The translations under genes and the position numbers were made by a program. Positions 5,256-46,291 of a DNA stretch of 64,000 nt are shown here, in pieces (the stretch's first letter is position 1; each line of letters starts with the position of its first letter). Source of the DNA: Actinomycetota bacterium (GTDB lineage: Bacteria; Actinomycetota; Acidimicrobiia; Acidimicrobiales; JAMCPD01). Where the stretch lies: NCBI GenBank assembly GCA_023379935.1, contig JAMCPD010000017.1, forward strand, positions 67,420 through 131,419. The letters run 5' to 3'. The notes under the pieces were generated by a model, which was not told where the DNA came from, did not search any database, and saw only the letters and a list, made by a program, of their open reading frames with translations.

Positions 5256-6275
5256 ATGGTTTCAAGTTATAGTGGCGCTGCCGGTTACCAACCTGTTACT
5301 GGTGTTGCCGGTTACGAGGTTGGCAATGAAGATGTGTATTCTACTGTCACCCCAGAGGGGATGAGAATCAATTTTACCTTAGCCGGTATTGGATCCAGGG
5401 CCTCGGCTTTCATATTGGACTCTTTGATAATGTCTGCAGTGATATTTGCAGTTTTTTATTTACTTCTTTTACTTCCTGTGTTCATCGCGGTTTCTTCCCC
5501 TAGTAGTAATACCTCTGCCAATAATACCCCCGGCCTTGCAGCACTGGCTATTTTTGTTGTTATAGCTTTTTTGATGATGTTTGGATATTTTATATTCTTT
5601 GAGGTGAAAAGCTCAGGTCGTACTCCCGGTAAAAGGGCGCTCGGGTTGAGGGTGATTAGAACTAGTGGTCAGCCGGTAACCTTTGGCGCGAGTGCAATAC
5701 GTAATATACTTAGGCTGATAGATATGCTCCCTACAGCCTATTTTGTGGGTGGAGTATGTGTGCTTGCAACAAAGCGTAACCAACGGTTGGGTGATATGGC
5801 CGCTGATACCATAGTTATAAAGGAAACGGTAAACGTCAATCAGAGACTTTCACCACCGCAACCCTTACCGCATCCACCGCCAACACCATATATGCAACCT
5901 GCGCCATACCCACCGCCAACACCATATATGCAACCTGCGCCATACCCACCGCCAACACCATATATGCAACCTGCGCCATACCCACCGCCAACACCATATA
6001 TGCAACCTGCGCCATACCCACCGCCAACACCATATATGCAACCCTTACCGCACCCACCGGAAACATCGTACTGGGATTTGTCGGCTATTACCTTAGAAGA
6101 TTTACAAATTATATCTCAATTTTTAACAAGGTGTAGTTCGCTTGACCTAAAGACCCGGCGTTACTTTGCAGAAGAGATTGCTGCAAGATTATGGAGTAAG
6201 GTGGCTGGTGCTCCGCGAACAATAGACCCTGAGGCTTTCTTGATTCAAATATTGATGACCAAGCGAACCAGGTGA
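5256..6275 (+). CDS. RDD-family membrane protein with Pro-rich tandem repeat linker
   Basis: RDD-type core (GKRALGLRVIR...RLGDMAADTIVI), then 5 copies of PAPYPPPTPYMQ, then a C-terminal helical domain. TATAAT at 5243-5248 lies 7 nt before the ATG with no SD, so the mRNA is probably leaderless. Confidence 0.8.
   Translation: MVSSYSGAAGYQPVTGVAGYEVGNEDVYSTVTPEGMRINFTLAGIGSRASAFILDSLIMSAVIFAVFYLLLLLPVFIAVSSPSSNTSANNTPGLAALAIFVVIAFLMMFGYFIFFEVKSSGRTPGKRALGLRVIRTSGQPVTFGASAIRNILRLIDMLPTAYFVGGVCVLATKRNQRLGDMAADTIVIKETVNVNQRLSPPQPLPHPPPTPYMQPAPYPPPTPYMQPAPYPPPTPYMQPAPYPPPTPYMQPAPYPPPTPYMQPLPHPPETSYWDLSAITLEDLQIISQFLTRCSSLDLKTRRYFAEEIAARLWSKVAGAPRTIDPEAFLIQILMTKRTR
5873..6046 (+). repeat. 36-bp perfect tandem repeat, about 4.8 copies, in-frame within the RDD gene
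   Basis: The unit ccaccgccaacaccatatatgcaacctgcgccatac is repeated head to tail. It is flanked on both sides by gcaacccttaccgcayccaccg. Confidence 0.95.
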
Positions 6276-10710: not shown

Positions 10711-13700
10711 TCAGGTGCCGATGAGAACATTGCCCGCGGTATCTGTCGCCACACAAAAGTTCTGAGATGGACACGATACGGAGGTAAGAGTGTTGGTACC
10801 GTCGATGTTTGTGGCAGCCGAGAAGGTTGTTCCATTCCAAACAGTTCCAGCACCGGCGCTGCTGAGGGAACCAACTGCCACACAGAAACTTGACGATATA
10901 CAGGATATACCGTCAATATAACCAACACCAGTGTTTGTGTTTTGAGTCCAGCTCGTGCCGTTATAAACAAAGACATAGCCGTTGTCATCCCCTGCCACAC
11001 AGAAGCTGGACGAGGTACACGACACAGTATTGAGACTGGGGTCAGTGTTGGTGTCTATACTTGTAGGAGCACTCCAAGAACTGCCATTATAGGTATATCC
11101 GTTACCGGAATAGTCAACACCTGCGCAGAAGCTGGATGAGGTACACGACACTGAGGTGGGTCCGCCGGTGATTGGAGCCGACCAGGTACCACTGTTGTAG
11201 GTAAAAGCTTTACCCGCGGTATCTGTCGCCATACAGAAACTGGAGGAAGGACATGAAACAGAGGTGAGCCCATTGGTGCCGTCAATGTTTGTAGCGGCGG
11301 ACCAGCTTGTCCCGTTGAAGGAAAAAACATTGCCGACGTTGTCTGTTGCCATACAGAAACTGGAGGAAGGACACGAAACAGAGGTGAGCCCATTGGTGGC
11401 GTCAATGTTTGTAGCGGCGGACCAGCTTGTCCCGTTGTAGCTCAACACATTACCCGCGGTATCTGTCGCCATACAAAAACTGGAGGAAGGACATGAAACA
11501 GAGGTGAGCCCATTGGTGGCGTCAATGTTTGTAGCGGCGGACCAGGTAATCGCAGTGCCACTACTGGCAGTTATTGTGATTGATAACGAGGCGGTTGCGG
11601 TTTTTCCGGCAGAATCTGTAACTGTGACACCAAATGATGCGGCGGTGGCGGTGGATGGTGTTCCGCTTATTACCCCGGTTGAAGAAGCAAGGCTGAGTCC
11701 GGAAGGCAATGCTCCAGAACTTATGGACCAAGTATAAGGAGATGTACCACCGGTTGCCGAAAGCGTAGCGGAATAGGACTGACCAACGGTACCGCCCGGC
11801 AAAGCGGTTGTCGTTATACTAAGTGATGGAGAAGAGCCGGAAGATTGACCGATAAGGACATTACCCGCGTTATCTACTGCCGCGCAAAAACTTGTTGAGG
11901 GACACGATACAGATTCAAGGGTATAAGAGCCGTCAATGTTTTGAGGTGCGGACCAGGTTGTTCCGTTGAAGCTCAATGCATTTCCCGCGTTGTCTGTCGC
12001 CACGCAGAAACTGGAAGAGGGACACGAAAGCGAATAGAGTTGGTTGGTGCCGTCAATGTTTTTAGGTGTCGTCCAGCTCGTGCCGTTGAAGCTCAACACA
12101 TTGCCGACGTTGTCTGTTGCCACACAGAAACTGGAGGAAGGACACGATACAGAAAAAAGTCCGTTGGTGCTGTCAATATTCGTGGGAGATGACCAGCTTG
12201 TCCCGTTGTAGCTCAACACATTGCCGACGTTGTCTGTTGCCACACAGAAACTTGTTGATGAGCATGACACAGAGATAAGTCCGTTGGTACCGTCAATATT
12301 CGTGGGAGATGACCAGGTTGTTCCGTTGAAGGAAAAAACATTGCCGACGTTGTCTGTCGCCTCACAGAAACTGGAAGAGGGACAGGAAACAGAGTTAAGT
12401 CCGTTGGTGCCGTCAATATTCGTGGGAGATGACCAGGTTGTTCCGTTGAAGGAAAAAACATTGCCGACGTTGTCTGTCGCCTCACAGAAACTGGAAGAGG
12501 GACAGGAAACAGAGATAAGAGCGTTGGTGCCGTCAATGTTTGTAGCGGCGGACCAGCTCGTGCCGTTGTAGACAAGGGCATCACCTCCACTGCCCACTGC
12601 CTCACAAAAGCTTGTTGTGGGACATGACACAGAAAAAAGTCCGTTGGTCCCGTCAATGTTTGTAGCGGCGGACCAGGTAATCGCAGTGCCACTACTGGCA
12701 GTTATTGTGATTGATAACGAGGCGGTTGCGGTTTTTCCGGCAGAATCTGTAACTGTTACACCAAATGATGCGGCGGTGGCGGTGGATGGTGTTCCGCTTA
12801 TTACCCCGGTTGAAGAAGCAAGGCTGAGTCCGGAAGGCAACGTTCCAGAACTTATGGACCAAGTATAAGGAGATGTACCACCGGTTGCCGAAAGCGTAGC
12901 GGAATAGGACTGACCAACGGTACCGCCCGGCAAAGCGGTTGTCGTTATACTAAGTGATGGAGAAGAGCCGCTTAAAGTTGTATAGTAGCCCTCCACGTCA
13001 ATTACAACATTGACGCTTCCACTGAAGTTGTACACCTCTATATCACCGGCGGCAGATCCCGAGGTTGGCAGCCCCACTTGAACCAGGTTCGGTATGTTTT
13101 CGCCTGTTACAAAGTTCAAGTTGGAAGAGGCTTTACATGAGCTTATAGCCTCTCCGCCCGGACAGACGGAGAGATAACTTGGGGTACTTGCCCCAACTGC
13201 CGTAACGTTTAGAACAACAGCCGTTGCTCCTTTTGGAACCGGGGTTTCATTTGGAGCTAGATAAGGACTTTGATAGCCCGCAACTGCCACTGAGATATCC
13301 CCTGAAGCTCCAATGGGCGAAGCGCCACCTGTATCACACTGGTTCTTTAGTATGGTGGTTGAGTTGGCTGCCCTGGTATCACAGATGCGATAGGGGGAAG
13401 AAAGAGAGTTGAAGGATCCTTCTCCTTCGGTTGAAACTTGGGCAATGTAGCCCTCCACGTCAATTACAACATTGACGCTTCCACTGAAGTTGTACACCTC
13501 TATATCACCGGCGGCAGATCCCGAGGTTGGCAGCCCCACTTGAACCAGGTTCGGTATGTTTTCGCCTGTTACAAAGTTCAAGTTGGAAGAGGCTTTACAT
13601 GAGCTTATAGCCTCTCCGCCCGGACAGACGGAGAGATAACTTGGGGTACTTGCCCCAACTGCCGTAACGTTTAGAACAACAGCCGTTGCTCCTTTTGGAA

Positions 13701-16700
13701 CCGGGGTTTCATTTGGAGCTAGATAAGGACTTTGATAGCCCGCAACTGCCACTGAGATATCCCCTGAAGCTCCAATGGGCGAAGCGCCACCTGTATCACA
13801 CTGGTTCTTTAGTATGGTGGTTGAGTTGGCTGCCCTGGTATCACAGATGCGATAGGGGGATAAAGGCGTATAGCCGGTTGGAGCTATATAGGTAAAGTTC
13901 TCCCCGTTTGAAGTGCCACCGCCGGTTGTAACTGTCACTGAAACCGTGCCGGTGCCCGGGGGAGAAACGGCGGTGCATGAAGTGGAAGATGAACAGGTAA
14001 CAGATGTTGCTTGTCCCGATCCAAAGTCAACGGTTGTCATGTTTGTTGTGGTCAAAAATCCGGAGCCGGTTAGGGTTACGGTAGTTCCGCCTAAGGTGGA
14101 CCCGACGGTTGGTGAGATGGAAGACAAGGCTGGTTTGGTTGTGACTTTCGGACACAAAGCTCCGGGTGCAAAGATTGCCGCTGTTGGGCTTCCAAGTCCG
14201 CTTGCCATATCGTAGCCGGTGGTAGCAGGGTAAAGCCCATTATTTGTTCCTGTTATGTCGTTGTTCCCGGAGGTAATGTCTGTTAGATCGCTTGGGTGCG
14301 TGTAAAGTGCCGGGTTTGCAAACCCCGTAGGGCTTGAGCACCCTTCATTCGTGAGTGCTATGACAGAAGCCCATAGCGGAGCCGCTAGACTTGTACCGCC
14401 GACGCTAGTCCATCCCCCCTGATTTTGTTCATAAATTGTATAGCCGTGTAGAGAATTGGCTGATGCCGATACATCTGGAACCTCCCTGCAGTAGCTACCA
14501 GTCGGCGCTCCACAGGATGTACTGTTCGAGTACTGGTTTATCACACCGGTGCCGGTTTGCCATTTTGGCATCTGCCAGAATGTTGAAATACCTCCGCCGC
14601 CTCCGCCGGGTTTTATCCCATTTGTTCCGTTCCCGTTGTTCCAGACTGACTGGGTTGGGGGCGGTCCGATAGCGGTAAGGCTTGTTCCTCCGACACCCGT
14701 AACATATGGCTGTGAGGCCGGATCATCTACAGCTAATAACTCATTGCTTTGTATGTTGCCCACTGCTGCGTTTGTAATTGGGACAGATACTCCCATGCCA
14801 TTATTGGTGTTGCCTACTCCATAGCAGATAGTTGAGTTTACACATGCAATGCCTTCAACATTGATAGTTTGAGGTACTTGAACTGTAGTTCCAATTGTAC
14901 TGTTTGTAATTGGAACAACTACGCCTATAGTGCTTCCAGTGTTCTGTAAATACTGTCCAACCGTATAGCAGGTAGTTGAGCTTGAACAAGCAATTCCCCA
15001 CAGGTCAGAGGTTCCCGATACGCCTCCGGGAGTACCTACAGTTCCGTTTGTAATTACCACACCGGCGCCAATACCAGTACCGTTTAGATCGCCGAGTCCG
15101 ACCGCATAGCAGGTAGTTGAGCTTGGACAAGCAATCCCATCAAGCTGTATGAGATTTGGAATTACGGTTGGGGTTCCAATTGTACTGTTTGTAATTGGGA
15201 CTACAACCGCCTCACCAGAGTTGTTGTCTCCAACCGCATAACAGGTAGTCGAAGTCGGACAAGCAATTCCAAGCAACCAAGAGGTTCCCGATACCGTAAC
15301 AGGAGTACCAGGGGTTCCGTTTGTAACCGGTACAATAGTGCCTATATTAGTTGCTCCCAGTACCCCGGCGTATCCGACCGCATAACAGGTAGTTGAAGTC
15401 GGAAGGCAGGCAATGTCGTTCAATCCCGAAGTTGACGATATTGCCGATGATGTTCCTATGCTACCATTCGTATCAGAAACAAAGAATCCCTCGCCGTTAG
15501 CACCATCACCAACCGCATAACAGGTGGTCGAAGTGGGACAAACAACGCCATAAAGGTCTGCAGCGGCGGAAAGCGTAGCGGTAGTTCCCGGGATACCATT
15601 TTGGAGGAGAACATATGCTCCGGCTGTATTGCTATTCTGATCACCTACCGCAACACAGTCAGTGGGGTTCGTAGAGCTTGAGCAAAAAATACCAAAAAGA
15701 TAAGGGGTTGTATTGCCGGCCCAGCAGTCTTCAGAGCCGGAATCACCGCTAGCAGCCAACATGGACTGCCCCTGAGTCGCCATCTGCTCAAAGATTGTGT
15801 TCTCTGCTTTGATGATACTTGAATTATTCAATGGTTCACAACCCCCCCAGCTTGTGGAAACTACTTGTGCGTTATCGGCGGTAGCGATAGTGTTGTAGGT
15901 ATCTATTTGTCCCTGTCCGGTGTTGGGTCCTACATAAACAGTGATGTTTGCATCAGGGGCAAGACCTGCTATGTCCTCAATATCGCTGGTGGTTTCCATT
16001 GATCCACTTGTTGTGCCGTTGACGGCAGCTCCATCTACGGACACGTTTTTTATTGTTGGAGATATCCCATAGCAGCTATCATAAGTTGAAATGTCACTTG
16101 TCTGATAGGGTGCCAGTTCATAGAGTGCAATCGTCTCACCTGTGCCAAATCTACTATTTGCGTAAGCTCCAGTTGTAAACCCATACGCTTGGGCAAGCTG
16201 ATTGGCCGTATAAGAGCCGTTTTGAGTTGCCGCTGATGTTGCTGAACTACAAGGTGTAGGCGCGGTCGTTACATTAGCTTTCAGACGCGAAACAGTATGT
16301 GGGGACAGGTTGTTTTTTGGTTTTGCGGCCGGCGACTTGACAATGAGCGGCTTGGCTAAATCAACTGAGGATAAACCGACTATTGCCGTTATATATGGAG
16401 CAATAGTCTCAGGAACACGTGCCGGAGTGGTATTTGCATATGCTATCCGGCCAGAGGGAAGGCGGAAACGATTGAGAGAAGTGTGAAAAGCATGTTCTGC
16501 ATTGGCTGTGATTGTGGTAAGCGGAATTATAAGCCGGTTTGCCGAGAGCTTGCCTATATCAAGCCCTTCGGAACTAACAGTATGTTCCACCGCTAAAATG
16601 GTTGACCGTGAAGGTCCAAACTCCAAAGCAAACTGCCCTCGTTTTAAGAAGTGGTGATATTTGGGTGATGAGGGTTGATAAAGCGCAGAGAGAAAGCTGT

Positions 16701-17025
16701 TTAGGGCTGACCGGTGGCGAGGTGCAAGAACAACATCAAGGTGGAGGGGTGTATTTTTCGGAAGAGCTCCAAGACTGCGTGTACCGGGTGGAAGTGGTTG
16801 CGCATGTCCAATCGACACCAATGTATGTTGAGCTAAAGACCGGCTGACAAAAAGACTAGAAGGAGTTTTTATGATAATACCACCTTGAGTAGGGTCATTA
16901 CCGTGATTGTTGGCAATACCGTTGCCGACAATACTTCCCATAGCGCCTACGATCGCGAATAAAGCCAAGAATATGGTCAAGAAAACGCCTAAAGCATGTT
17001 TAAGACTAGATATTACAACTTTCAA
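10711..17025 (-). CDS. 2104-aa secreted/anchored mosaic protein: sedolisin (S53) protease with inserted propeller, IPT, 2 PYRICDTR domains, 2 (He_PIG + 7-blade) modules
   Basis: TTG start 8 nt after AAGGAGG and 15 nt after the upstream stop. Order of parts: N-terminal TM anchor; pro-kumamolisin-like prodomain; S53 motifs AASGDSGS and VGGTSLAAPLWA; 7 Cys-pair blades (CPTSTTCYAVGD type) between those two motifs; an IPT/TIG domain; two identical 154-aa PYRICDTR domains; then two He_PIG Ig domains (GQSYSATLSATGGTSPYTWS), each followed by 7 blades (SVSCPSSSFCxATD). Confidence 0.85.
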   Translation of the reverse strand: MKVVISSLKHALGVFLTIFLALFAIVGAMGSIVGNGIANNHGNDPTQGGIIIKTPSSLFVSRSLAQHTLVSIGHAQPLPPGTRSLGALPKNTPLHLDVVLAPRHRSALNSFLSALYQPSSPKYHHFLKRGQFALEFGPSRSTILAVEHTVSSEGLDIGKLSANRLIIPLTTITANAEHAFHTSLNRFRLPSGRIAYANTTPARVPETIAPYITAIVGLSSVDLAKPLIVKSPAAKPKNNLSPHTVSRLKANVTTAPTPCSSATSAATQNGSYTANQLAQAYGFTTGAYANSRFGTGETIALYELAPYQTSDISTYDSCYGISPTIKNVSVDGAAVNGTTSGSMETTSDIEDIAGLAPDANITVYVGPNTGQGQIDTYNTIATADNAQVVSTSWGGCEPLNNSSIIKAENTIFEQMATQGQSMLAASGDSGSEDCWAGNTTPYLFGIFCSSSTNPTDCVAVGDQNSNTAGAYVLLQNGIPGTTATLSAAADLYGVVCPTSTTCYAVGDGANGEGFFVSDTNGSIGTSSAISSTSGLNDIACLPTSTTCYAVGYAGVLGATNIGTIVPVTNGTPGTPVTVSGTSWLLGIACPTSTTCYAVGDNNSGEAVVVPITNSTIGTPTVIPNLIQLDGIACPSSTTCYAVGLGDLNGTGIGAGVVITNGTVGTPGGVSGTSDLWGIACSSSTTCYTVGQYLQNTGSTIGVVVPITNSTIGTTVQVPQTINVEGIACVNSTICYGVGNTNNGMGVSVPITNAAVGNIQSNELLAVDDPASQPYVTGVGGTSLTAIGPPPTQSVWNNGNGTNGIKPGGGGGGISTFWQMPKWQTGTGVINQYSNSTSCGAPTGSYCREVPDVSASANSLHGYTIYEQNQGGWTSVGGTSLAAPLWASVIALTNEGCSSPTGFANPALYTHPSDLTDITSGNNDITGTNNGLYPATTGYDMASGLGSPTAAIFAPGALCPKVTTKPALSSISPTVGSTLGGTTVTLTGSGFLTTTNMTTVDFGSGQATSVTCSSSTSCTAVSPPGTGTVSVTVTTGGGTSNGENFTYIAPTGYTPLSPYRICDTRAANSTTILKNQCDTGGASPIGASGDISVAVAGYQSPYLAPNETPVPKGATAVVLNVTAVGASTPSYLSVCPGGEAISSCKASSNLNFVTGENIPNLVQVGLPTSGSAAGDIEVYNFSGSVNVVIDVEGYIAQVSTEGEGSFNSLSSPYRICDTRAANSTTILKNQCDTGGASPIGASGDISVAVAGYQSPYLAPNETPVPKGATAVVLNVTAVGASTPSYLSVCPGGEAISSCKASSNLNFVTGENIPNLVQVGLPTSGSAAGDIEVYNFSGSVNVVIDVEGYYTTLSGSSPSLSITTTALPGGTVGQSYSATLSATGGTSPYTWSISSGTLPSGLSLASSTGVISGTPSTATAASFGVTVTDSAGKTATASLSITITASSGTAITWSAATNIDGTNGLFSVSCPTTSFCEAVGSGGDALVYNGTSWSAATNIDGTNALISVSCPSSSFCEATDNVGNVFSFNGTTWSSPTNIDGTNGLNSVSCPSSSFCEATDNVGNVFSFNGTTWSSPTNIDGTNGLISVSCSSTSFCVATDNVGNVLSYNGTSWSSPTNIDSTNGLFSVSCPSSSFCVATDNVGNVLSFNGTSWTTPKNIDGTNQLYSLSCPSSSFCVATDNAGNALSFNGTTWSAPQNIDGSYTLESVSCPSTSFCAAVDNAGNVLIGQSSGSSPSLSITTTALPGGTVGQSYSATLSATGGTSPYTWSISSGALPSGLSLASSTGVISGTPSTATAASFGVTVTDSAGKTATASLSITITASSGTAITWSAATNIDATNGLTSVSCPSSSFCMATDTAGNVLSYNGTSWSAATNIDATNGLTSVSCPSSSFCMATDNVGNVFSFNGTSWSAATNIDGTNGLTSVSCPSSSFCMATDTAGKAFTYNSGTWSAPITGGPTSVSCTSSSFCAGVDYSGNGYTYNGSSWSAPTSIDTNTDPSLNTVSCTSSSFCVAGDDNGYVFVYNGTSWTQNTNTGVGYIDGISCISSSFCVAVGSLSSAGAGTVWNGTTFSAATNIDGTNTLTSVSCPSQNFCVATDTAGNVLIGT
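11520..12968 (-). repeat. dispersed intragenic repeat: ~318 bp at 11520-11837 nearly identical to 12651-12968 (offset 1131 bp)
   Basis: Both copies encode the He_PIG Ig module plus the first blade boundary. The shadow ORFs 11504-11737 and 12617-12868 have the same translation apart from one residue. Confidence 0.85.
12985..13864 (-). repeat. 462-bp tandem duplication, ~418 bp of each unit identical
   Basis: 12985-13402 matches 13447-13864 base for base as far as I can read. The shadow ORFs 13224-13412 and 13686-13895 translate identically, at an offset of 462. Each unit encodes one PYRICDTR domain. Confidence 0.9.
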
Positions 17026-17040
17026 AAAATAAACCTCCTT

Positions 17041-20000
17041 TTAGCTATACCAACCGGTTACATCCACAACAACATTTACAGAACCTTGATACAGTCCTAT
17101 GCTTATCTTACCAGAAGCAGACAGTTTAACTGTAACAGAGTTTGCAACTGTTAGACCCGGCGAAAAGTTTAGGTTTGAAACTACTGGCTGAGCAGTACCT
17201 TCGGGCCAAACAGTTAGATAGGCATCAGCGGTTGGATTTACCGCTGTTACGTTCAGTACTACAGCTTTGGCATTAGAAGGAATAGGTCCCATACCGGCTA
17301 GACTAAGGGTAAGGAAGACAGAAGAGGAAAGCGGAGTGCTAGAACATCCGGTGGCATAACCAACTGATGATACTGTTCTTGTATCACATGCTCTATAAGG
17401 GGTAGTTCCAACAAAACTGATTCCGGTTGTCGAAGAAGAAAAGTATCCCATCACGTCAACAGCCACATCTGTAGTGCCACTAAAGTTATAGATTGAGATG
17501 TCACCGTTTTGTGGTAGCGGTACTATAACAACATTTGGGACGGTTTGATTTGGTGCAAAGTTCAGGTTTGACGCAGTTGGTTGGGTGGCACCCTCTGGCC
17601 AAACTGTCAGATAACCCGGTTCAGTAGGAGAAATAGCTGTTACGTTTAGTACTGCGGCCACAGCAGTTGTCGGAACTCCTCCTGAAGTCGGACAAGTTGA
17701 TAGGCTGCATGGATTTGTTCCCCCAACCTCTACATTTAATATTTTACTTGGACCCAAGGTTTTCCCTTCACATTGGCTCAAGTCGTAACCGGACAGCTTA
17801 GATGGATTATTGCTTCTTGTGTCACATACTCTGTATGGAGTAATCGGGGAAAAGACAGTTCCGCCGGAGGCCGGCCCGTAGTATCCCTCAACGTCAACCA
17901 CAACATCTGATGAAGCGTAAGAGTATATGGAGATACATCCCGTACAGGAGGTGGTAGTGCCGAGTGCAACCTCTGTCAGATTTGGAACGGTTTGTCCGGA
18001 TGTGTAGTTGAGTGAAGAAGCAGTCGGTTTAACTTCTCCAGCAGGCCAAACAGTAAGATAGCCCGGCCCGGTCGGATCCACTGCCGTTATGTTCAGCACA
18101 ACAGAAGTAGCATTGGACGGCACATATGACTCTCCTGAACCAAGATATGGGCTTTTATAACCCGAAACTTGTATTTGCATGGTTTGTCCGCCACCAAGCG
18201 GAGACGGACCGTTTACATTACACTGATTCTTCAGTATTGAGCTTCCCTGAGGTGTTCTTGTATCACATATTCGATAGGGAACAAGGGGATAGTAGTTTGT
18301 GCCGACTTGAGGCGTAGAAGAAAGATAGGTATATGCCGTCCAGTCAGAGGTTGCACCTGAAACAGTAACACTGACATCTACCGTATCGGGCAAGGTTGCT
18401 CCGCTTGGAGCAGGCGGCACGATAGCGGTGCAGGAGGAAGTAGTAGAACAAGAAACAGACGTTGCGGGAGTAGATCCAAACAAAACGGTTGTACTGCCAG
18501 GGGCGGTTGAAAAGTTCGTACCGGCTAGGGTTACGGTATTACCACCTGAGGCAGGTCCTTGAGAAGGCGAGATAGAGGTTAAGGTTGGTGGCGGTAATAA
18601 AACAGTTGAATAAAGGGTCAGGCCGACATTGTCGGCACCAAGTGTAAAACACTCGCTAACAGTTTGGACGCATGTTGTGTCAGTGCTGTCTACAGGTTCG
18701 AGATAGTTGACAGCTAGTGGCTGCCAGAATGGGGCATCTAATGTTAAGCTGTTCTGTATTGTACAAGCCCCAACTGATAAACACATAATTTTACCTGTTG
18801 AGTTAACTCCTCCGGTAGGCTGATTTGTCCAGGAAGTGCCGTTCCAGAAAAGTACACCTCCGCTGGAACCACTATATGTCCCTGGGGTAGCAAAACAGTA
18901 AGAAGATGAGATGCACAGCACATCATCTATTCCTTCGGGGTTCAAGGAGTCAAAGGAGGAAGGCAGAGTATCGGTTGTCCATCCTGAACCATTGTAAGAA
19001 AGTATAACAGGAGTTGTAGATGTCCCTGCTTTACAGAAGGTAGTCGATACGCACGATATAGTGGAGATGGGGGATATTCCCGAACTAAGGGTTTGTGTAG
19101 TCCATGCAGTACCGTTCCAAGATAACGCAATGGCGGAGGAAGAGGGGCTCCCTCCCACAGCTTCACAGAAGGTTTGAGACACACATGAGATTGCCTCAAG
19201 CGGTGCCACTGTGGATGGGAGAGTCTCGATTGTCCAATTTTTGCCGTTCCAGGACAGAGCAATACCATTAGTTTGAGTTTGTGTAACAGTGCCAATTGCT
19301 GTAACAGTGGTGGTGTAATAAGATCCCACAGCTTCACAGAAGGTCTGAGACACGCATGTAAGCGCATCAATTTCATAAGGTCCTGAGTTAGATGAGGGGA
19401 AAAGGGTTTGATTTGTCCAGGAAGTGCCGTTCCAGGACACAGAGGCTTCGACAATACCAAGAGGGGTATCGCCCGTCCCCAACGCCAGACAAAAGCTTGA
19501 AGAAACACAGGAGATTCTATAAGAACCGCTTATGGCAAAGGGAGGAGTCACACTTGACCAAGCGGTACCGTTGTAAGGGAATATAGCAGCGGTAACATCT
19601 CCGCTGTTTGGAACCGTTATAGCACCTGAAGCCAGGCATGATGAGACAGAAGCGCACCATATGCCACTGAGTGTCCATGTATTGGCTGGGATAGTCTCTG
19701 TGCTCCAGGTTGTACCATTCCAGAAATCCGCATTAGCTCCCACAGCTTGGCAATATGACTCCGAGCTGCACCAAATACTGTTTGTACCCAAAAAACCGGA
19801 GGGAAGAGTTTCATTCGACCAGCTCGTACCGTTATACAGGTATGAAAGAGGACCATTCGGATTGCTGGTTCCATTGTGATAGGAGCCGACAGCCTGGCAG
19901 AAGGTTGGGGAGGTGCATGAAATTGACCTGATAATACTTCCCGTTTCAACAAAAGGTATAGCTTCGGATGCCCAGTTAGTGCCGTTATATCCATATGCAA

Positions 20001-23000
20001 TAACAGTGGTTTGAGTATTACCACCCAACGCCTGGCAAAAGGATGTGGAGGTACATGAGATTGTGCTAAGTTGCCCCTCTATGTCGGGGCTGATGGAAAG
20101 GGTTGTTTCGACTGTCCAAGCGGTACCGTTGTACAAAAGGATAATGTCGTTGGTGGAACTGGAACCGACAGCTTGGCAATAAGTGGAAGATACGCACGCC
20201 ACAGCATAAAGGCCCGTTATTCCCGAAGGTAGGGTTTCATTTGTCCAGGTGGTACCGGTTCCGTTCCAAGAAAAAGCGATTCCAGTCGAAGCTCCAGTCA
20301 AGGTTGTGACGTAGCCCACTACTTGACAAAATCCGTTTGATGAGCCGGTTGGAGGTATACATGAAATTCCCCGGAGACTGCTGTTTGTTGGAATGCCGTC
20401 AATACCGATATCATTGATCCACGTAGATCCTCCGTTGGTTGTTTGGAAAACGGTTGTATCATTGTGTGGCCCATTGCTGGCTACACCAAAACATATGCCG
20501 GTCGTTGCACATGAAATACCCGTAAAGAGATAAGATTGGGAAGGATATCTTGTTGGAGGGAACGAAGACCAGTTGATTGTTGGATTATAGCTGTAACTTA
20601 TAACATTTGAAGTACCAGAGGAAGTCCTTACTGTGACCGGCAGTGTTCCTCCTAAACCGGGCCCGCTTGGTGAAACAACGCTGCAGGTAGTTGTTGATGA
20701 ACAAAAGACATCTGTTGCCGGCTTTGGACCAAAATACACGCTGGTTGAGCCTGTTGCAGTTGAAAAATTGTTACCGGATATCGTTACCAAAGTGCCTCCG
20801 CGCACTGATCCTGTATTTGGATTAATTGCACCAACCAAAGGGGTTAAAGCAGTGACAGAGAGTGCATAAAGCCCCGCGTAGGAGTTTGTGATACCCGATG
20901 TTTCACAAACAGCGCTTAGAGTACTGGATGATATACATGACAGGGCATCAGAAACGCTGGTTACCGAGGAGGGGAAACTTACCTTAGACCAAGTTGAACC
21001 GTTGAGAGAAAGTGAGATGGGGCTGTTGCCGGAGTTATTATTTCCAATTGCCTCACAAAAACCGGGGCCGGTACACGACACCTCATCAAGGCCGCTAATA
21101 TTTACCGGTAGGGCTTGGGGATACCAAGCATTTTCTGATTCGTCGTACTCCGCAGCGCTGTTATTACCAACCAACTCACAAAAAGTTTGTGCCTCAGGCG
21201 ATAGTATACATGACACAGCATTAGCACCGGTGGGCGTATTATTGTCCAAGGTCCAGCTTGAACCGTTCCAAGACAAGACAACACTCGCAGAAGGACTCGC
21301 AGAAGGAGCATACCCGACTGCCATACAAAAGCTTGAAGATGTACATGATACGCTGTTTAGGGTGGCATTGGCTCCCAAAGAACTAAGGGTTTGTGCAGTC
21401 CACACAGTTCCGTTGTAGGAAAAAGCGATAGGGTTACTTGAACTGTATCCTACTGCCTCACAAAAGGTTGTCGTCACACACGATACACTTGTGAGTTGGT
21501 CATTGGCTCCCAAAGAACTAAGGGTTTGTGCAGTCCACACAGTTCCGTTGTAGGAAAAAGCGATAGGGTTACTTGAACTGTATCCTACTGCCTCACAAAA
21601 GGTTGTCGTCACACACGATATCCCAAAAAGATTGGAAGCGGGCGAAGGGAGAGTCTGTTCGGACCATGTAGATCCGTTCCAGGACAAGCCAACACCGACA
21701 GTGGCATTAGAGACGACAGCTGATCCTACTGCCTCACAAAAGGTTGTCGTCACACACGATATGCCATTAGGGGCATTTATCGTTGATGAAGGCAAAGCCA
21801 GTGTAGTCCAACCTGAACCGTTATATAAAAATGCATTAGGGGGGTAGGTGGTTCCTCCTGAATTACCGCCTGAATTAGACGTTCCCAATGCCACACAAAA
21901 GCTTTGAGATATACACGATATGCTGTTGAGGCTGGAATTATAGGGTGAGTTGGGGAAAGAGACAGTCTGTTCAGTATCCCATGTTCCACTATAAGGTAGT
22001 CCAATTGCGGAGTTGGAGCTATAACCGCCCGGAGCATAGCTAAACGATGATCCCCCCGCTTCGCAAAAGCTTACAGAGGTACAAGAAATAGTAGAGTAAA
22101 GAGGTACCGTATTTGATGAATATGAGATTGGAGTGTCGCTGCCGCTCCATGAGGAACCGTTATAAGATAAGATAGTCCCGTCAATAAAAGGCTGAGTGTT
22201 TAAACTGATATTACCTACCGCCATGCAGAAAGTTTCAGAAGCACATGACAACCCCTCAATCTCGCCGTTAGTTGCTTGTTGGGAGGGTAAGCTTTGCGAA
22301 CTCCATGTGCCACCGTTATAAATGGCGGCAATAGCGGTGGAGGTGGTGTTGATAGTACCTCCTGCCACACAAAATTCACTTGATGTTCCAATACATGAAA
22401 CGCTTAACAGTTCAGACTCGGATGAGGTATCGGATGATGGTAATGTTGATGTACTCCATGTGCTGCCGTTGTAAACAGCACCAGCAGCTATGTTAGTGGC
22501 TAAGGAAGAGGAAAAGGTATCTCCGACTGCCATACAAAAGCTTGAAGATGTACATGATATGGCAAAAGGGGACGTTATTGTAGATGGCATGTTTTGAAGT
22601 ATCCATGCAGAGCCGTTATAGGTCAAAGAAACGCCGACATTAGTTGTTCCGTTATAGGAGTACCCCACAGCTTCGCAAAAGCTAGCCGACACACACGATA
22701 TGGCATCCAGCGACCCAACTGAGGAGGGAATTGAGGCTGTATCGTTTGACCATGTTGATCCTCCGTTAGCTGTTTCATAGAGTCCGGCCCCGGTGGGGGG
22801 GTTTCCAGCAGCGTTTAATGGGGTTTTCCCAACAGCAAAGCAAATCTCTGAGCTTATACAACTTATAGATTCAAGTGATGATGCCAAAAACGGGTATTCA
22901 GTTTGGACAGACCACTGTGGAGTGGCGTGAGTATGAATACTGCCCAAAAGGCTGGTTGCATATCCAGGTACAGGTGTAAATACACTGAGTAATGCTGTTA

Positions 23001-23046
23001 GACTGACAACCAAAAAAAGGTGGTAGAAGTTGGGTTTTGTTATCAT
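17041..23046 (-). CDS. 2001-aa secreted mosaic protein: 14 Cys-pair blades, IPT, 14 blades, IPT, 3 PYRxCDTR domains
   Basis: ATG with no SD (see promoter feature) and a signal peptide ending PVPGYA. I counted 14 + 14 blades by hand, of the type ISCVSASFCEAVG...YNGSxW. There are two IPT/TIG domains (GGTLVTISGNNF, GGNTVTLAGTNF). The C-terminus holds three ~140-aa domains starting PYRICDTR, PYRVCDTR and PYRACDTR. Confidence 0.85.
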   Translation of the reverse strand: MITKPNFYHLFLVVSLTALLSVFTPVPGYATSLLGSIHTHATPQWSVQTEYPFLASSLESISCISSEICFAVGKTPLNAAGNPPTGAGLYETANGGSTWSNDTASIPSSVGSLDAISCVSASFCEAVGYSYNGTTNVGVSLTYNGSAWILQNMPSTITSPFAISCTSSSFCMAVGDTFSSSLATNIAAGAVYNGSTWSTSTLPSSDTSSESELLSVSCIGTSSEFCVAGGTINTTSTAIAAIYNGGTWSSQSLPSQQATNGEIEGLSCASETFCMAVGNISLNTQPFIDGTILSYNGSSWSGSDTPISYSSNTVPLYSTISCTSVSFCEAGGSSFSYAPGGYSSNSAIGLPYSGTWDTEQTVSFPNSPYNSSLNSISCISQSFCVALGTSNSGGNSGGTTYPPNAFLYNGSGWTTLALPSSTINAPNGISCVTTTFCEAVGSAVVSNATVGVGLSWNGSTWSEQTLPSPASNLFGISCVTTTFCEAVGYSSSNPIAFSYNGTVWTAQTLSSLGANDQLTSVSCVTTTFCEAVGYSSSNPIAFSYNGTVWTAQTLSSLGANATLNSVSCTSSSFCMAVGYAPSASPSASVVLSWNGSSWTLDNNTPTGANAVSCILSPEAQTFCELVGNNSAAEYDESENAWYPQALPVNISGLDEVSCTGPGFCEAIGNNNSGNSPISLSLNGSTWSKVSFPSSVTSVSDALSCISSSTLSAVCETSGITNSYAGLYALSVTALTPLVGAINPNTGSVRGGTLVTISGNNFSTATGSTSVYFGPKPATDVFCSSTTTCSVVSPSGPGLGGTLPVTVRTSSGTSNVISYSYNPTINWSSFPPTRYPSQSYLFTGISCATTGICFGVASNGPHNDTTVFQTTNGGSTWINDIGIDGIPTNSSLRGISCIPPTGSSNGFCQVVGYVTTLTGASTGIAFSWNGTGTTWTNETLPSGITGLYAVACVSSTYCQAVGSSSTNDIILLYNGTAWTVETTLSISPDIEGQLSTISCTSTSFCQALGGNTQTTVIAYGYNGTNWASEAIPFVETGSIIRSISCTSPTFCQAVGSYHNGTSNPNGPLSYLYNGTSWSNETLPSGFLGTNSIWCSSESYCQAVGANADFWNGTTWSTETIPANTWTLSGIWCASVSSCLASGAITVPNSGDVTAAIFPYNGTAWSSVTPPFAISGSYRISCVSSSFCLALGTGDTPLGIVEASVSWNGTSWTNQTLFPSSNSGPYEIDALTCVSQTFCEAVGSYYTTTVTAIGTVTQTQTNGIALSWNGKNWTIETLPSTVAPLEAISCVSQTFCEAVGGSPSSSAIALSWNGTAWTTQTLSSGISPISTISCVSTTFCKAGTSTTPVILSYNGSGWTTDTLPSSFDSLNPEGIDDVLCISSSYCFATPGTYSGSSGGVLFWNGTSWTNQPTGGVNSTGKIMCLSVGACTIQNSLTLDAPFWQPLAVNYLEPVDSTDTTCVQTVSECFTLGADNVGLTLYSTVLLPPPTLTSISPSQGPASGGNTVTLAGTNFSTAPGSTTVLFGSTPATSVSCSTTSSCTAIVPPAPSGATLPDTVDVSVTVSGATSDWTAYTYLSSTPQVGTNYYPLVPYRICDTRTPQGSSILKNQCNVNGPSPLGGGQTMQIQVSGYKSPYLGSGESYVPSNATSVVLNITAVDPTGPGYLTVWPAGEVKPTASSLNYTSGQTVPNLTEVALGTTTSCTGCISIYSYASSDVVVDVEGYYGPASGGTVFSPITPYRVCDTRSNNPSKLSGYDLSQCEGKTLGPSKILNVEVGGTNPCSLSTCPTSGGVPTTAVAAVLNVTAISPTEPGYLTVWPEGATQPTASNLNFAPNQTVPNVVIVPLPQNGDISIYNFSGTTDVAVDVMGYFSSSTTGISFVGTTPYRACDTRTVSSVGYATGCSSTPLSSSVFLTLSLAGMGPIPSNAKAVVLNVTAVNPTADAYLTVWPEGTAQPVVSNLNFSPGLTVANSVTVKLSASGKISIGLYQGSVNVVVDVTGWYS
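21366..21620 (-). repeat. 135-bp tandem duplication with a 120-bp perfectly identical core
   Basis: 21366-21485 is identical to 21501-21620. Each copy encodes one blade (VTTTFCEAVGYSSSNPIAFSYNGTVWTAQTLSSLGAN). Confidence 0.9.
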
Positions 23047-23175: not shown

Positions 23176-25665
23176 ATGTGGGATTTAACGCTATTGGGCA
23201 GCTTTCGTCTGCTTCGCGAAGGCAATATAGTGCGAGGATTGAAAGAGGAAAAACTCCAGTCTCTTTTGGCTTTCTTGTCATTGCGACCGGGTAACCCCCA
23301 AAGCCGCGGTCGCATGGCAAGCTTACTTTGGCCAAACTCTTCGGAAAGCCAGTCTCGCACCAACTTACGCAAAGCTTTGCACACGTTACATGAATACCTA
23401 CCTGAACTTGCGGACTTGTTGGTCTTGGAAGGGAAAACATTAGCCTTTGCACCGGACAAGGCGAATAGCGTTGACGTTATACGGTTTCGAACAGCGGCGC
23501 AAACAAATACCCTGAGATCGTTACGTCAAGCAGCGAAGCTGTATGGCGGTGATTTTTTGCCCGGTTTATGGGATGAATGGATTCTGGCGGAACGAGAACT
23601 GCTGAACGAGGAGTACCTGAGGGTACTCGAGAAAATAGCAGAACTTTTGGAAAATCGGGGCGATTTAGATGAGGCAATTTTTTATACGAGGACACTTTTG
23701 GCGAAAGACCAACTACGGGAAAAGTTTTGGCAGCGTCTCATAAGATTAAATGGTTTGACCGGTGATGGAGCGGCAGTAGAAACAACCTGGAAACAATGCA
23801 CTAAGACGATAAAGCGGGAACTTGGGATAGAGCCTTCATTTATTACTCAACAAGTTTACGAAGAAAGCCGACTGGCTGTTCATGGCCGAATCGGTTCTGA
23901 AAATTACATTATCCCGCCGCTTCGGACTGTTTCGAACAACTCAAAGACTATGAAATTCCCAAACAGGCGCTACAGTGAGACTATGCTGGGTTATAGGGAC
24001 AAAGATATTTTTGTCGGACGTAAAGAAGAGCTGGATTTTTTCCGCAAATGGTTGTTATCTGAGAATTCGACAGTTTTAAATATTTATGGTCCGGGTGGTG
24101 TAGGCAAAACCACTTTGTTGCGTGCGTTTGAAAAAATAGCCAGAGGTGAAAACTGGTCGGTTGTTCAGATGGAAGGGTCTGAATTTACCGATGTGTCGGG
24201 AAAGGATATATGGTTGAATCGCACAGGCTCTGTTATCTTCTTGGATGCTTTTGATGAGATATCCAACCCCTTTAGGTGGATACAAGATAAGTTTTTAGAA
24301 AATCTTGCCGTTCCGTTTCATATAGTGATAGCAGGGCGTCATCCACTGAAGACAATGTTGCCTCTTAATTCAGGTTGGCACCGTCTGTTGTTCTCATTAC
24401 CTCTGACAGGATTTTCAACGGAGGTGAGCTGGGAGTATTGCAAAGCGCGGGGCTTGAAAGATTCTGTAATATCCAGCAGGTTGATTCGTGCTGCTGCTGG
24501 CAGTCCTTTAGCTCTTTCGTTGGCGGTTGACATGGTGATTCAGTATGGTTGGGATGTTCCTCAATCTGATGGTTTTACAAAAAATATTACTCAGATTCCC
24601 ACTTGGCATGTGGTTGTCCGTTCTCTGGTGGAGGAGCTGTTACGGGAGACAGATGATCCTGTTTTGTTGCGTAGTTTAGAAGCGGCTGCTGTTGTGCATC
24701 AATTCGATCGGGATCTCTTGACTGCCTTACTTGGCCAAGAGGGTAAAACATTAAACCTGGCTGGCGCTTTTGACAAGCTTGCCTCTTTGTCGGTTGTTCG
24801 TCCCACCGCCCATGGCCTTTCTCTTCATGACGAGGTACGCCGTCTGATATCCGATGATCTTCGTTGGCGATCACCGCGAAGTTACACTGAACTACTGTTG
24901 CGCGCCATTACTTACTACCGACAGTTAATATACTCCGGCGAACCGCTGGAACGAGAACGGTTGGTGGCGGAATGTCTATTTCTTGTGAATGAAGGACTGC
25001 TCAACTCACTGTTTTTCGAAGAAAAAGCAGCGGAGCAAATTTATGTGACTAATGGGGAACCCGAAGATATCCAAGCAGCTCATGACGTATGGTTGAGGTG
25101 GTATCAGCGATCTCTCGGCGAGTACCCCTCTCCCGCACTTGAACTTCAACTACGGCGCACCTTGGCTCACCCGTCAGTCCGTTTTAGATTAGCTCGTAGT
25201 TATAACAGGGAGATTTTGGGTTTTGCCGCTGTTATTCCTATCTGCCGTGACTGTTTGGATTTACTGACTTTCGGCTCCGCAACAGCTTCACTGGTTGATA
25301 CGTGTTTTACTTCTAATGATTTAGATTCACTTCCTCTTGAAGCTCATGAAACCACACTGTTTCACTTCCGTTACGTAGTGGAGGGTGATCAATGGAGTGA
25401 AACAGTCCGCTCACTTTTACTTTGTGATCTGATCGGGCTTTTAATAAATGAAGGTACTTACTTTGTTTCCACACCCTTTGCCTACTACAAAGAGGTGTTG
25501 GATGTTTTGGGTTTTCAACGGTTGGATTCAGCACGTAACTGGGGAAATGGGAACGCCTCACCTGTTGAGCATTACAAGCTGGATCTTTCCCGCACCGGAT
25601 TCGATGAGTGGTATAAAGATTTACTGCACAGGTGGAACGCTTTTGAAACGCTCCCTACTGTATAA
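23176..25665 (+). CDS. SARP/BTAD-family transcriptional regulator fused to a P-loop NTPase and a C-terminal domain of unknown type
   Basis: The N-terminus has a winged-helix plus BTAD pattern (LLGSFRLLREG...LLAFLSLRPG...YGGDFLPGLWDEW...LGIEPS). A P-loop IYGPGGVGKTTLL and Walker B VIFLDAFDE follow. The ~250-aa C-terminal region is possibly GNAT-like. AAAGGAGGAG lies before the ATG. Confidence 0.8.
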   Translation: MWDLTLLGSFRLLREGNIVRGLKEEKLQSLLAFLSLRPGNPQSRGRMASLLWPNSSESQSRTNLRKALHTLHEYLPELADLLVLEGKTLAFAPDKANSVDVIRFRTAAQTNTLRSLRQAAKLYGGDFLPGLWDEWILAERELLNEEYLRVLEKIAELLENRGDLDEAIFYTRTLLAKDQLREKFWQRLIRLNGLTGDGAAVETTWKQCTKTIKRELGIEPSFITQQVYEESRLAVHGRIGSENYIIPPLRTVSNNSKTMKFPNRRYSETMLGYRDKDIFVGRKEELDFFRKWLLSENSTVLNIYGPGGVGKTTLLRAFEKIARGENWSVVQMEGSEFTDVSGKDIWLNRTGSVIFLDAFDEISNPFRWIQDKFLENLAVPFHIVIAGRHPLKTMLPLNSGWHRLLFSLPLTGFSTEVSWEYCKARGLKDSVISSRLIRAAAGSPLALSLAVDMVIQYGWDVPQSDGFTKNITQIPTWHVVVRSLVEELLRETDDPVLLRSLEAAAVVHQFDRDLLTALLGQEGKTLNLAGAFDKLASLSVVRPTAHGLSLHDEVRRLISDDLRWRSPRSYTELLLRAITYYRQLIYSGEPLERERLVAECLFLVNEGLLNSLFFEEKAAEQIYVTNGEPEDIQAAHDVWLRWYQRSLGEYPSPALELQLRRTLAHPSVRFRLARSYNREILGFAAVIPICRDCLDLLTFGSATASLVDTCFTSNDLDSLPLEAHETTLFHFRYVVEGDQWSETVRSLLLCDLIGLLINEGTYFVSTPFAYYKEVLDVLGFQRLDSARNWGNGNASPVEHYKLDLSRTGFDEWYKDLLHRWNAFETLPTV

Positions 25666-30356: not shown

Positions 30357-32723
30357 ATGAGAACAGGAACTGGAAGAACTGGGATCAAACTCTACAAAGG
30401 ATATACAATTGTAGCGGCTGTATTGGTTATGACAACCTTAAGTACTCTCTTTAGCTCTGTTGTCATGACCACCGCTGATGCAGGTGCGCAATCGAGCACA
30501 CAGGCCGGCACACAGGCCTATAGTGCCGTTACCCCATTTAGGATAGCTGATACCCGCTCAAGTTATCATTGCGGAAATGTCAGCCCCGCCGGATCTCTTG
30601 GGCCGGATGCTACCGTAACGCTGACGGTTGTAGGAGCGAGCGACTGTGAAAGTACCTCCGGTAGCGTTCCTTCAAATGCAACCGCTGTTGCACTTAATGT
30701 AACCGTCACAGATACTACGGCTCCGGGTTTTCTCACCCTCTATCCTGCCAACGTTACCAAGCCTACATCCTCCAATTTGAACTGGCAGGCTGGAGAGACT
30801 GTTCCCAATATGGTTGTCATAAAACTCAGCCCTACCGGGACCATTGACATCTACAACGGATCGGATGGCACCAGTGATGTGGTAGTCGATGTAGAAGGCT
30901 ATTTCATGCCGGCCAGTTCAACGACCGGAACGGGACATTATCAACCGTTACCGACTCCGCAACGCATTTGTGATACCCGTCCCGCTAGTACAACTACGCC
31001 CAATAATCAATGCACGGATCATCCCTTACAAGCCGGTACCTCTTCACAAACACTTACGGTTCAGGTTGCAGGGAAAGCAGGGCTTCCCGTTACCGGGGTC
31101 TCAGCGGTTGCTTTAAATGTTACCGCTATCAACCCTAGCGTATTTAGTTATTTAACGGTATACCCTGCCAGTGCTACAAGACCCACAGTTTCGAATCTGA
31201 ACTTTGTTGCTGGTGAAACTGTACCCAATCGGGTAATAGTGGGGCTTGGAACTAATGGTTCCATAGATGTCTATAATTTTGCCGGCACAGTTGATGTGGC
31301 TATAGATGTAACAGGGTATTTTACAGATTCCACAGCACAACAAACCTTTGGCAGTCTTTTTGAACCGATTTCACCGCAGCGTATCTGTGATACTCGCCCC
31401 GCAAGTGTTACAGGTTATACCGATCAATGCACGGGTCACACTTTACAAGCCGGTACCTCTTCACAAACACTTACGGTTCAGGTTGCAGGAGAGGGCGGCA
31501 TTCCCGCATCAGCCAGCGCTACCCCACCTACAGCTGTGGTCTTGGATGTGGCTGTTACCGACACCACCGCCCCCAGCTATCTCACTGTTTACCCCAGCGG
31601 AGCAACTCCGCCGACAGCATCTGACCTCAACTGGACGGCTGGTGTGACGCGAGCCAATCTGGTGGTAGCCACTCTTGCTCCCGGGGGCACCCTTTTAGTC
31701 TATAACTTCTCCGGTTCTACAGATGTTGTGATAGATGTAGTCGGCTACTTTACTGCTGCGGCTACAACCTGGACACAAGTGCTGCCGGCTGTTCCCATTT
31801 CAGGAGTATCGCCTTATAATGGCACTGGTGATACTTCAACCATGTACGCGGCGATGGCCTATGATGCCAATACCAATCAGGTTATTTTTTACGGAGGCAT
31901 TAATTCAAGTACTGATACTTTTGCTTGGAGTGGATCTTCGTGGTCGGAAGTATCCTCGGCAAATACTCCTCCTGCTGGATTGTATGGGGCATCAATGGTG
32001 TATGATGCCGCCAACCAAACAATACTGTTTTTTGGTGGGACATCTGTGGGTTACCAATCTAGTCCTTCAAATAGCACATGGGTATGGGATGGCACCAACT
32101 GGACCGAAGCGGCTCCCACAACCAGTCCTTCAGGGGGTTACGGTGAAGGAATGGCATATGATCCCGCTATTGGCAAAGTGGTACTCTATACTGATTATGG
32201 TAATACCTGGACTTGGGATGGCACCAACTGGACAAAGCTTTCTCCTGCTACAAGTCCCGGACCAATCTGTGCTGAAGTAATGGCTTATGATCCTTCTACC
32301 ACCAGTATCATTTTGTTTGGTGGATATGATAACAGTGCTTCTGTTCCTCTATCTCTATCAGGTTGTGGCGGCGGTTACGGCAATGAAGAGCCCTCACTTG
32401 ATGCTACGTGGAGTTTCGACGGTACAACATGGAGCAAGTTAAGTCCTGCCACAAGCCCGCCAGGACGCCAAAATGCAGCTATGGCTTATGACCCGAACAC
32501 CAGTCAGTTGGTACTTTTTGGCGGAAATGCCGGCGGTACTTGCAGTAGCGTACCTTGTAATCCGTTGAACGATACCTGGACTTTCAATGGTAACAACTGG
32601 ACACAGCAAAGCCCGCAGTCTGTTCCCCCTGCCGGGGACGGCACCAATGGCATGGTATGGGATGGTACAGCGTTGATGATGGTTGGCAACCAAGGTAGTA
32701 CTTGGCACTATCCAACCATGTAA
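30357..32723 (+). CDS. 788-aa secreted protein: 3 PxRIxDTR domains + ~6 Kelch-type repeats
   Basis: Signal/TM at the N-terminus. The domains start VTPFRIADTR, PTPQRICDTR and ISPQRICDTR, and each ends DVxGYF. The C-terminal half has Kelch-like blades (MAYDPxTxxxxLFGG...WxxDGTxW). GGAGAAAAAAT lies before the ATG. Confidence 0.85.
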   Translation: MRTGTGRTGIKLYKGYTIVAAVLVMTTLSTLFSSVVMTTADAGAQSSTQAGTQAYSAVTPFRIADTRSSYHCGNVSPAGSLGPDATVTLTVVGASDCESTSGSVPSNATAVALNVTVTDTTAPGFLTLYPANVTKPTSSNLNWQAGETVPNMVVIKLSPTGTIDIYNGSDGTSDVVVDVEGYFMPASSTTGTGHYQPLPTPQRICDTRPASTTTPNNQCTDHPLQAGTSSQTLTVQVAGKAGLPVTGVSAVALNVTAINPSVFSYLTVYPASATRPTVSNLNFVAGETVPNRVIVGLGTNGSIDVYNFAGTVDVAIDVTGYFTDSTAQQTFGSLFEPISPQRICDTRPASVTGYTDQCTGHTLQAGTSSQTLTVQVAGEGGIPASASATPPTAVVLDVAVTDTTAPSYLTVYPSGATPPTASDLNWTAGVTRANLVVATLAPGGTLLVYNFSGSTDVVIDVVGYFTAAATTWTQVLPAVPISGVSPYNGTGDTSTMYAAMAYDANTNQVIFYGGINSSTDTFAWSGSSWSEVSSANTPPAGLYGASMVYDAANQTILFFGGTSVGYQSSPSNSTWVWDGTNWTEAAPTTSPSGGYGEGMAYDPAIGKVVLYTDYGNTWTWDGTNWTKLSPATSPGPICAEVMAYDPSTTSIILFGGYDNSASVPLSLSGCGGGYGNEEPSLDATWSFDGTTWSKLSPATSPPGRQNAAMAYDPNTSQLVLFGGNAGGTCSSVPCNPLNDTWTFNGNNWTQQSPQSVPPAGDGTNGMVWDGTALMMVGNQGSTWHYPTM

Positions 32724-46215: not shown

Positions 46216-46291
46216 AAAATTCACCTCAAATATACGCAATCCGATAAAAGTAAGTATAGCACACGTACACACATATCAGCATTCGCCATGG

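Follow-up and report, generated by a model that had tools for sequence, protein, structure and literature searches.

Identical tracts inside two adjoining giant genes of an Acidimicrobiales bacterium: probable footprints of intragenic gene conversion

Architecture of the genes and their modules

The 64-kb window analyzed here (64,000 nucleotides of contig JAMCPD010000017.1, assembly GCA_023379935.1) is dominated between 10.7 and 23.0 kb by two adjoining minus-strand genes for very large secreted proteins, G1 and G2, in which segments encoding protein modules recur with perfect or near-perfect DNA identity. The nearest homologues come from Acidimicrobiales metagenome-assembled genomes (MAGs). 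G1 (10711-17025, minus strand) is an open reading frame (ORF) of 2104 amino acids (aa), matched by a GenBank gene call of equal length, and encodes a secreted or surface protein. An N-terminal hydrophobic segment, a pro-kumamolisin activation domain, a split S53 (sedolisin-type) peptidase and an IPT/TIG domain are followed by two copies of a domain termed PYRxCDTR (PYR), a He_PIG domain, a 7-blade propeller (A), a second He_PIG domain and a second 7-blade propeller (B). Pfam matches were obtained for Pro-kuma_activ (PF09286, E 3e-25) and He_PIG. Judged from its sequence, G1 follows the S53 pro-enzyme layout, with the activation domain preceding a peptidase that carries an E/D pair and a GGTS motif. 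The peptidase is split by a Cys-rich blade array (aa ~444-762, ~320 aa, ~7 blades; window ~14740-15696) inserted between the E/D motif (SMETTSDIED, aa 342-354) and the Ser motif (GGTSLAAP, aa 876-885). Both motifs were located by eye, and they are taken to hold the catalytic residues by analogy with sedolisins in general. The blade insert probably explains why G1 gave no match to a Pfam peptidase model; in homologues, 4-16 blades are inserted at this site.

G2 (17041-23046, minus strand), identified as an ORF with domain matches, encodes a 2001-aa IPT/TIG protein in which Cys-blade arrays occur alongside two TIG domains, and in which three diverged PYRxCDTR domains (17050-18285) stand at the C-terminus. 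No sortase signal was visible at the C-termini. Divergent from the G2-G1 pair, an 829-aa protein with BTAD and STAND-type NTPase regions (23176-25665, plus strand) is a candidate regulator of both genes. A related MAG (L004; JAJYXR010000028.1, 637-20951) has a multi-gene layout like that of G2-G1: three giant genes lie side by side and encode 1886, 2167 and 1562 aa, and the product of the second is a sedolisin whose two PYR domains are nearly identical.

Propeller A (11842-12681, minus strand) consists of 7 blades of 40 aa with a mosaic of DNA identities between 62 and 90 %, and propeller B (10714-11550, minus strand), also of 7 blades, is 66 % identical to it overall at the aa level. An AlphaFold 2 model of the seven-blade array formed one compact domain (pLDDT 93.8, pTM 0.91), and the model matched seven-bladed propellers at TM scores of 0.77-0.86, namely Ycf48 (E 6e-16, TM ~0.8) and WD40 proteins (TM up to 0.86). 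Exactly seven blades are present in propeller A, in propeller B and in the C-terminal array of the comparison protein P0002. As modeled, the closed 7-bladed fold probably restricts the gain and loss of blades.

The PYRxCDTR domain is ~135 aa long and is predicted to form a beta-sandwich (pLDDT 88). It had no Pfam match at E <= 10, no NCBIfam match and no sequence match in the PDB, and its fold matches were weak (carbohydrate-binding modules (CBMs) and Cry domain III; TM 0.3-0.45), which makes a CBM-like function of the modeled domain only a lead. Homologous domains are numerous, with at least 38,641 representatives of 50 %-identity clusters at E <= 1e-3 and 29,082 at E <= 1e-10, and the copies nearly always number three or a multiple of three (6, 9). 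PYRxCDTR is a large, hitherto undescribed extracellular module, possibly a pseudo-trimer, and its triplet brings to light a very large domain family for which Pfam has no model. A third protein of the window (ORF 30357-32723, plus strand) is secreted and carries such a triplet at its N-terminus (30528-31748, plus strand; domains 47-59 % identical at the aa level), followed by a Kelch-type propeller.

The identical tracts and their edges

Exact repeats were enumerated over the whole window. In G1, 12985-13398 is identical to 13447-13860 over 414 bp at a period of 462 bp, with mismatches at 13399/13861 and 13400/13862. The 462-bp repeat described in the original prediction, an earlier reading of the same DNA, is therefore real, but its perfect run measures 414 bp and not ~418 bp. 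The run codes for 138 aa (SPYRICDTR...VIDVEGY), and 138 of 138 codons are identical, synonymous sites included. The first PYRxCDTR core, U_a (13447-13860, minus strand), stands in the ancestral TIG-linker-PYR context and matches the second core, U_b (12985-13398, minus strand), at 414/414 bases. Between the two lies a spacer of 48 bp with unique sequence, S (13399-13446, minus strand; IAQVSTEGEGSFNSLS), which resembles neither flank. The 3' part of S, ending GSFNSLS, fits the beta1-strand motif of the PYR family, G-x-[FY]-x-x-[LIV], which precedes every PYR domain. Both cores are of the D1 type, the first of three positional types of the family, and their outer flanks are unrelated.

The He_PIG repeat, with its copies 1131 bp apart, also exists, although with three differences (315/318 over the segment originally reported) where one or two had been counted. 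Comparison of 11520-11839 with 12651-12970 gave 317/320 identical bases, the differences lying at 11626, 11710 and 11712; one is synonymous and the other two fall in a single codon, exchanging Thr and Ala. Each tract (He_PIG-A, 12651-12970; its partner He_PIG-B, 11520-11839; both minus strand) comprises the He_PIG domain and continues into the propeller behind it, with its 3' end ten codons into the first blade (blade 1/8). It is embedded in an older 1131-bp duplication of [He_PIG + 7-blade], the remainder of which is only 50-88 % identical and of unequal length.

Two further repeats concern blades, and here the original description was borne out. In G2, 21366-21485 (copy b) equals 21501-21620 (copy a) over a perfect core of 120 bp at a period of 135 bp, both on the minus strand. 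The 15-bp loop spacer between them (21486-21500, minus strand; DQLTS) and its counterpart following copy b (ATLNS) differ at 7 of 15 nucleotides (nt), as against 0 differences over the adjoining 120 bp. In G1, adjacent blades at 12.2-12.5 kb are 85-90 % identical, and blades 2 and 3 share a perfect run of 105 bp (12290-12394 = 12410-12514) at a period of 120 bp. More generally, identity among the G1 blades is a mosaic in which interior blades are most alike and many exact matches of 24-51 bp occur at varying offsets.

Chance is excluded as a source of these repeats, since besides them only three short-period tandem repeats reach >=60 bp of exact identity anywhere in the window. Constraint on the protein fares no better: the PYR triplet of G2 is 44-48 % identical at the aa level and shares the codon at only 19-23 of ~55 identical residues (~40 %), and protein-level constraint therefore cannot account for identity of the nucleotides. 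Selection for identical sequence, whether purifying selection on the protein or selection on an RNA or DNA element, has nothing specific in its favor beyond the modules being clearly functional domains, and it is a very improbable explanation given identity at all synonymous sites of the PYR pair, the ~40 % of codons shared by other paralogous domains and sharp tract edges that selection would not be expected to produce.

In all four repeats the identical run is shorter than the period (414/462, 120/135, 105/120 and 320/1131), and the spacers or flanks are unrelated or diverged, as in the U-S-U arrangement of the PYR pair. Tandem duplication or unequal crossover must leave a run (D-D) of at least one period, and consequently the four repeats do not fit fresh tandem duplication. 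This comparison of run length with period, together with position-specific signatures, offers a way to distinguish new duplication from conversion at the sequence level. The He_PIG tract moreover ends in the middle of a unit, as can be expected of a conversion tract, whereas the PYR tract of G1 covers the whole core. No microhomology or common motif was found at the tract edges apart from PYRICDTR. Following this reasoning, we consider the perfect segments to be probable footprints of ongoing intragenic gene conversion between pre-existing modules (PYRxCDTR, He_PIG and blades). The original prediction had summarized them as recent module shuffling, which the diverged spacers and flanks speak against; of the two origins it had put forward, gene conversion that is still ongoing is favored over very recent duplication by tracts shorter than their periods and by the partial-domain tracts of relatives.

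Tracts in homologues and between strains

Three PYR copies were present in 122 of 143 retrieved proteins, with a median within-protein identity of 50 % (95th percentile 72 %), and the copies group across proteins by position (D1, D2, D3). Together, the copy number and the grouping by position indicate that the triplet is ancient and that its copies normally evolve independently. Against this distribution G1 (99 %), P0005 of L004 (96 %), P0065 (93 %) and P0070 (87 %) are outliers. P0065 has a canonical triplet in which D1 and D2 share a tract of 294/294 nt restricted to the N-terminal two-thirds of the domain, while the C-terminal thirds remain D1-type and D2-type. On sequence grounds this pattern shows conversion from D1 into D2, as a duplication could not have generated it. 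The D1/D2 pair of P0070 has the same layout in an older form (247/263). In the L004 homologue there are exactly two PYR-type domains, 414/432 identical and joined by an unrelated linker; the 18 sites at which they differ imply that a two-copy PYR array is real in this family. On their 5' side, the tracts of G1, P0065 and P0070 have their edge at the invariant PYRICDTR motif, and that of L004 has it at PERLVDTR, the corresponding motif.

A smaller signal of the same kind was found in the third PYR protein of the window, where D2 and D3 share a perfect 47-bp run (31026-31072 = 31443-31489) that was reached by 0 of 20000 column permutations and is probably a micro-conversion tract. It is conceivable, though doubtful, that PYRxCDTR positions exchange segments recurrently from a hotspot at PYRICDTR, with the G1 pair as an extreme outcome. 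If this were true, cassette conversion within one gene would amount to a built-in means of re-assorting or homogenizing ligand-binding surfaces in surface proteins of actinobacteria and Chloroflexi.

Strain-level comparison was possible with two contigs from JGI metagenome 3300039716, found via protein cluster members. L039 corresponds to window positions 11612-10167 and L040 to 18578-16631, and together they differ from the window at 5 bases in 3394 bp (background 2 single-nucleotide polymorphisms). Four of the five differing bases are confined to a 66-bp stretch of blades 9 and 10 (clustering P = 3.7e-4), and each of the four equals a paralogous base (chance 0.058 per site). At 11374, 11356 and 11347, which are consecutive informative sites, L039 has the blade-8 state and is flanked on either side by blade-9 states. 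This delimits a strain-level conversion tract in blade 9 (11342-11425, minus strand) with a minimum length of 28 bp (11347-11374) and a maximum of 84 bp. A path switch by a de Bruijn assembler is excluded here, since the downstream sequence in common with blade 8 amounts to just 5 bp. The number of blades in L039 is unchanged, and its propeller B has the same length as in the window.

This last result bears on the earlier expectation that the genes are likely to vary in length between strains, which gains only indirect support, from homologues. Three sedolisin alleles (P0001, P0003 and P0004 on L042, L043 and L044; GCA_027387695, GCA_027387785 and GCA_027387915) come from three MAGs, are ~99 % identical and share the same genomic context, but their blade arrays within the peptidase comprise 16, 14 and 13 units (proteins of 2183, 2094 and 2041 aa), corresponding to in-frame indels of 270 and 159 bp. 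Exact repeats in their DNA do not exceed 64 bp, which makes assembly collapse unlikely in this case, and the differences in blade number are likely to represent genuine copy-number variation between strains. An intergenic indel is also present in the flanks of the three loci. A cluster of mismatches in L044 (alignment columns 2145-2207) was considered as a conversion tract and not used, its paralogue origin being unclear (best 58/73). Near-perfect blade repeats are not confined to MAGs: a homologous blade array in Flexivirga alba NBRC 107580 (L002, 12661-12904), an isolate genome, contains a 121-bp exact run at a period of 123 bp, which is close to full-period (D-D) identity.

Origin of the tracts and comparison with known systems

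Gene conversion in G1 and G2 would consist of non-reciprocal, homology-dependent copying among paralogous modules already present in the gene. A broken or gapped copy of a module would presumably be repaired from a neighboring paralogue, perhaps by RecA-type homologous repair, so that tens to ~400 bp are overwritten and the number of modules stays the same. For the PYR pair, U_a may have overwritten an older second domain to give U_b. Such copy-number-neutral events could be tolerated where the module count is fixed, as in closed 7-bladed propellers and PYR arrays, while unequal crossovers that change the count would mostly be purged by selection, although such events are observed in the longer blade array within the peptidase of a homologue. 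The position of the beta1-strand motif in S, outside the identical tract, is what would be expected if an older second domain had been overwritten.

Several observations weigh against conversion. P0123, the protein most similar to U (66-68 % aa identity), aligns contiguously over TIG-linker-U_a and then ends, having a single PYR domain, and the second copy of G1 could be a lineage-specific new copy. The edges of the 414-bp tract are sharp and lie almost exactly at the domain limits (SPYR...EGY), like the breakpoints of a copy event. Most D1/D2 pairs of the family are ~50 % identical at the nt level and too diverged for homologous recombination; a more similar intermediate ancestor pair must be assumed, and pairs at 70-93 % do exist. 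Both the identity and the copy number of U are taken solely from the assembly, in which two copies represent a lower bound, and L039 may derive from the same sample as the source MAG. No strain-level relatives spanning U-S-U were found by a genome contig scan, a metagenome scan or a short-query protein search.

Fresh duplication of modules, with the perfect copies as very recent new copies, is the most likely of the alternatives, and we regard it as rather unlikely. For the PYR pair it would mean that U was copied imprecisely or non-tandemly to a site 48 bp downstream; template switching during replication, leaving a filler junction, is one conceivable mechanism. The absence of any difference over 414 bp, the single PYR domain of P0123 and the D1 type of both U copies would all agree with such an event, and the lineage has gained modules, as G1 carries an extra super-module [He_PIG + propeller] relative to P0002. 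Full-period (D-D) identity is, however, lacking from all four repeats; the conserved PYR beta1-strand motif shows S to be other than random filler; the He_PIG identity sits within a much older duplication; and in relatives conversion tracts end mid-domain. On this weighing, whole-domain conversion was ranked above fresh copying for the PYR pair of G1.

An assembly artefact or wrong copy number, by which the true array would be (U-S)n-U or the copies would have been homogenized by bubble-popping or polishing, is less probable still. U-S-U is the shortest route that an assembly can take through a cycle of repeats, and three copies would match the usual triplet of the family. The source is a MAG and the 414-bp repeat exceeds short-read length; a caveat about the assembly of identical blades has been raised by Pereira & Lupas (PMC9218822). 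The independent contig L039 stops within the He_PIG repeat, and the metagenome it comes from is fragmented everywhere. On the other side, the 2104-aa protein is found under two GenBank accessions with the order of neighboring genes reversed, which suggests separate contig records, and the assembler kept the three differences between the He_PIG copies. The two-copy pair of L004, with its 18 distinguishing sites, and the 121-bp exact blade repeat on a 4.7-Mb contig of the Flexivirga alba isolate genome also argue against an artefact, which in any case cannot make identity out of ~50 %-diverged domains. A risk of collapse or misassembly, as pointed out in the original prediction, is plausible. 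The repeats of these genes exceed a short read in length, and their copy number in MAGs is trustworthy only when long reads are at hand.

Concerted evolution and segmental gene conversion are known in bacteria from tufA/tufB, rRNA operons, pilE/pilS, vlsE and the MgPa cassettes. The tracts of G1 and G2 resemble these systems in the non-reciprocal transfer of short tracts between diverged paralogues, which gives rise to mosaic genes, and are best classified as concerted evolution through gene conversion within a gene, a process already known, with the protein family and the phylum being new. They differ in that donor and recipient are modules of one reading frame, whereas tuf- and pilE-type systems use separate genes or silent cassettes (for MgPa and vlsE, see PMC2169797 and PMC3828179). 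No evidence of a dedicated variation system was seen for G1 or G2.

Periscope Proteins (SasG, Aap, Rib and Sgo_0707; Whelan et al. 2021, PMC8201768) are surface proteins with repeats of folded domains of very high DNA identity, which has been proposed to drive intragenic recombination (PMC8201768). G1 is comparable as a large surface protein with DNA-identical domains. Periscope Proteins, however, have long identical tandem arrays that form a rod and vary in copy number, as has been documented, whereas G1 has only two identical PYR copies and its main signal is copy-number-neutral conversion. The blades of G1, 62-90 % identical, are modeled as closed 7-bladed propellers, in contrast to the stalk formed by Periscope repeats.

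Highly repetitive beta-propellers, described as "continuously amplified from single blades" (Pereira & Lupas 2022, PMC9218822; Afanasieva et al. 2019, PMC6805158), are similar in being bacterial and often actinobacterial, in having blades that may match even at synonymous sites, and in sharing the same assembly caveat. Their near-identity is global (>90 %) and has been read as fresh amplification; here, patchy tracts of 28-120 bp lie in a diverged 7-blade propeller. No tract reaches the length of a blade period, and for one of them strains differ while the number of blades stays constant, which points to conversion. Gene conversion as a mechanism has 0 occurrences in PMC9218822. Conversion at constant blade number in a closed 7-bladed propeller would bear on the view that near-identical blades always signify fresh amplification.

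Other repeats of the window lie in other genes. An RDD-family membrane protein (ORF 5256-6275, plus strand) contains (PPPTPYMQPAPY)x5 in its C-terminal part, encoded by a perfect 36-bp tandem repeat with 4.7 copies (5874-6043); the contig gene table instead places an ORF of 88 aa on the other strand, which looks mis-called. At 45979-46180, a 27/54-bp repeat encodes a ~100-aa N-terminal extension rich in Ala, Lys and Thr (AKTAxKAGT) of a CarD-family transcription regulator (ORF 45397-46272, minus strand; CarD_TRCF_RID and CarD_C), a histone-H1-like tail. Finally, a J-domain (DnaJ) membrane protein (ORF 59941-60900, minus strand) has an acidic unit of 24 aa (DDDYNFDAYSDEDSEEEDKYQRNY), for which a near-perfect 72-bp repeat with 2.5 copies (60486-60665) codes.

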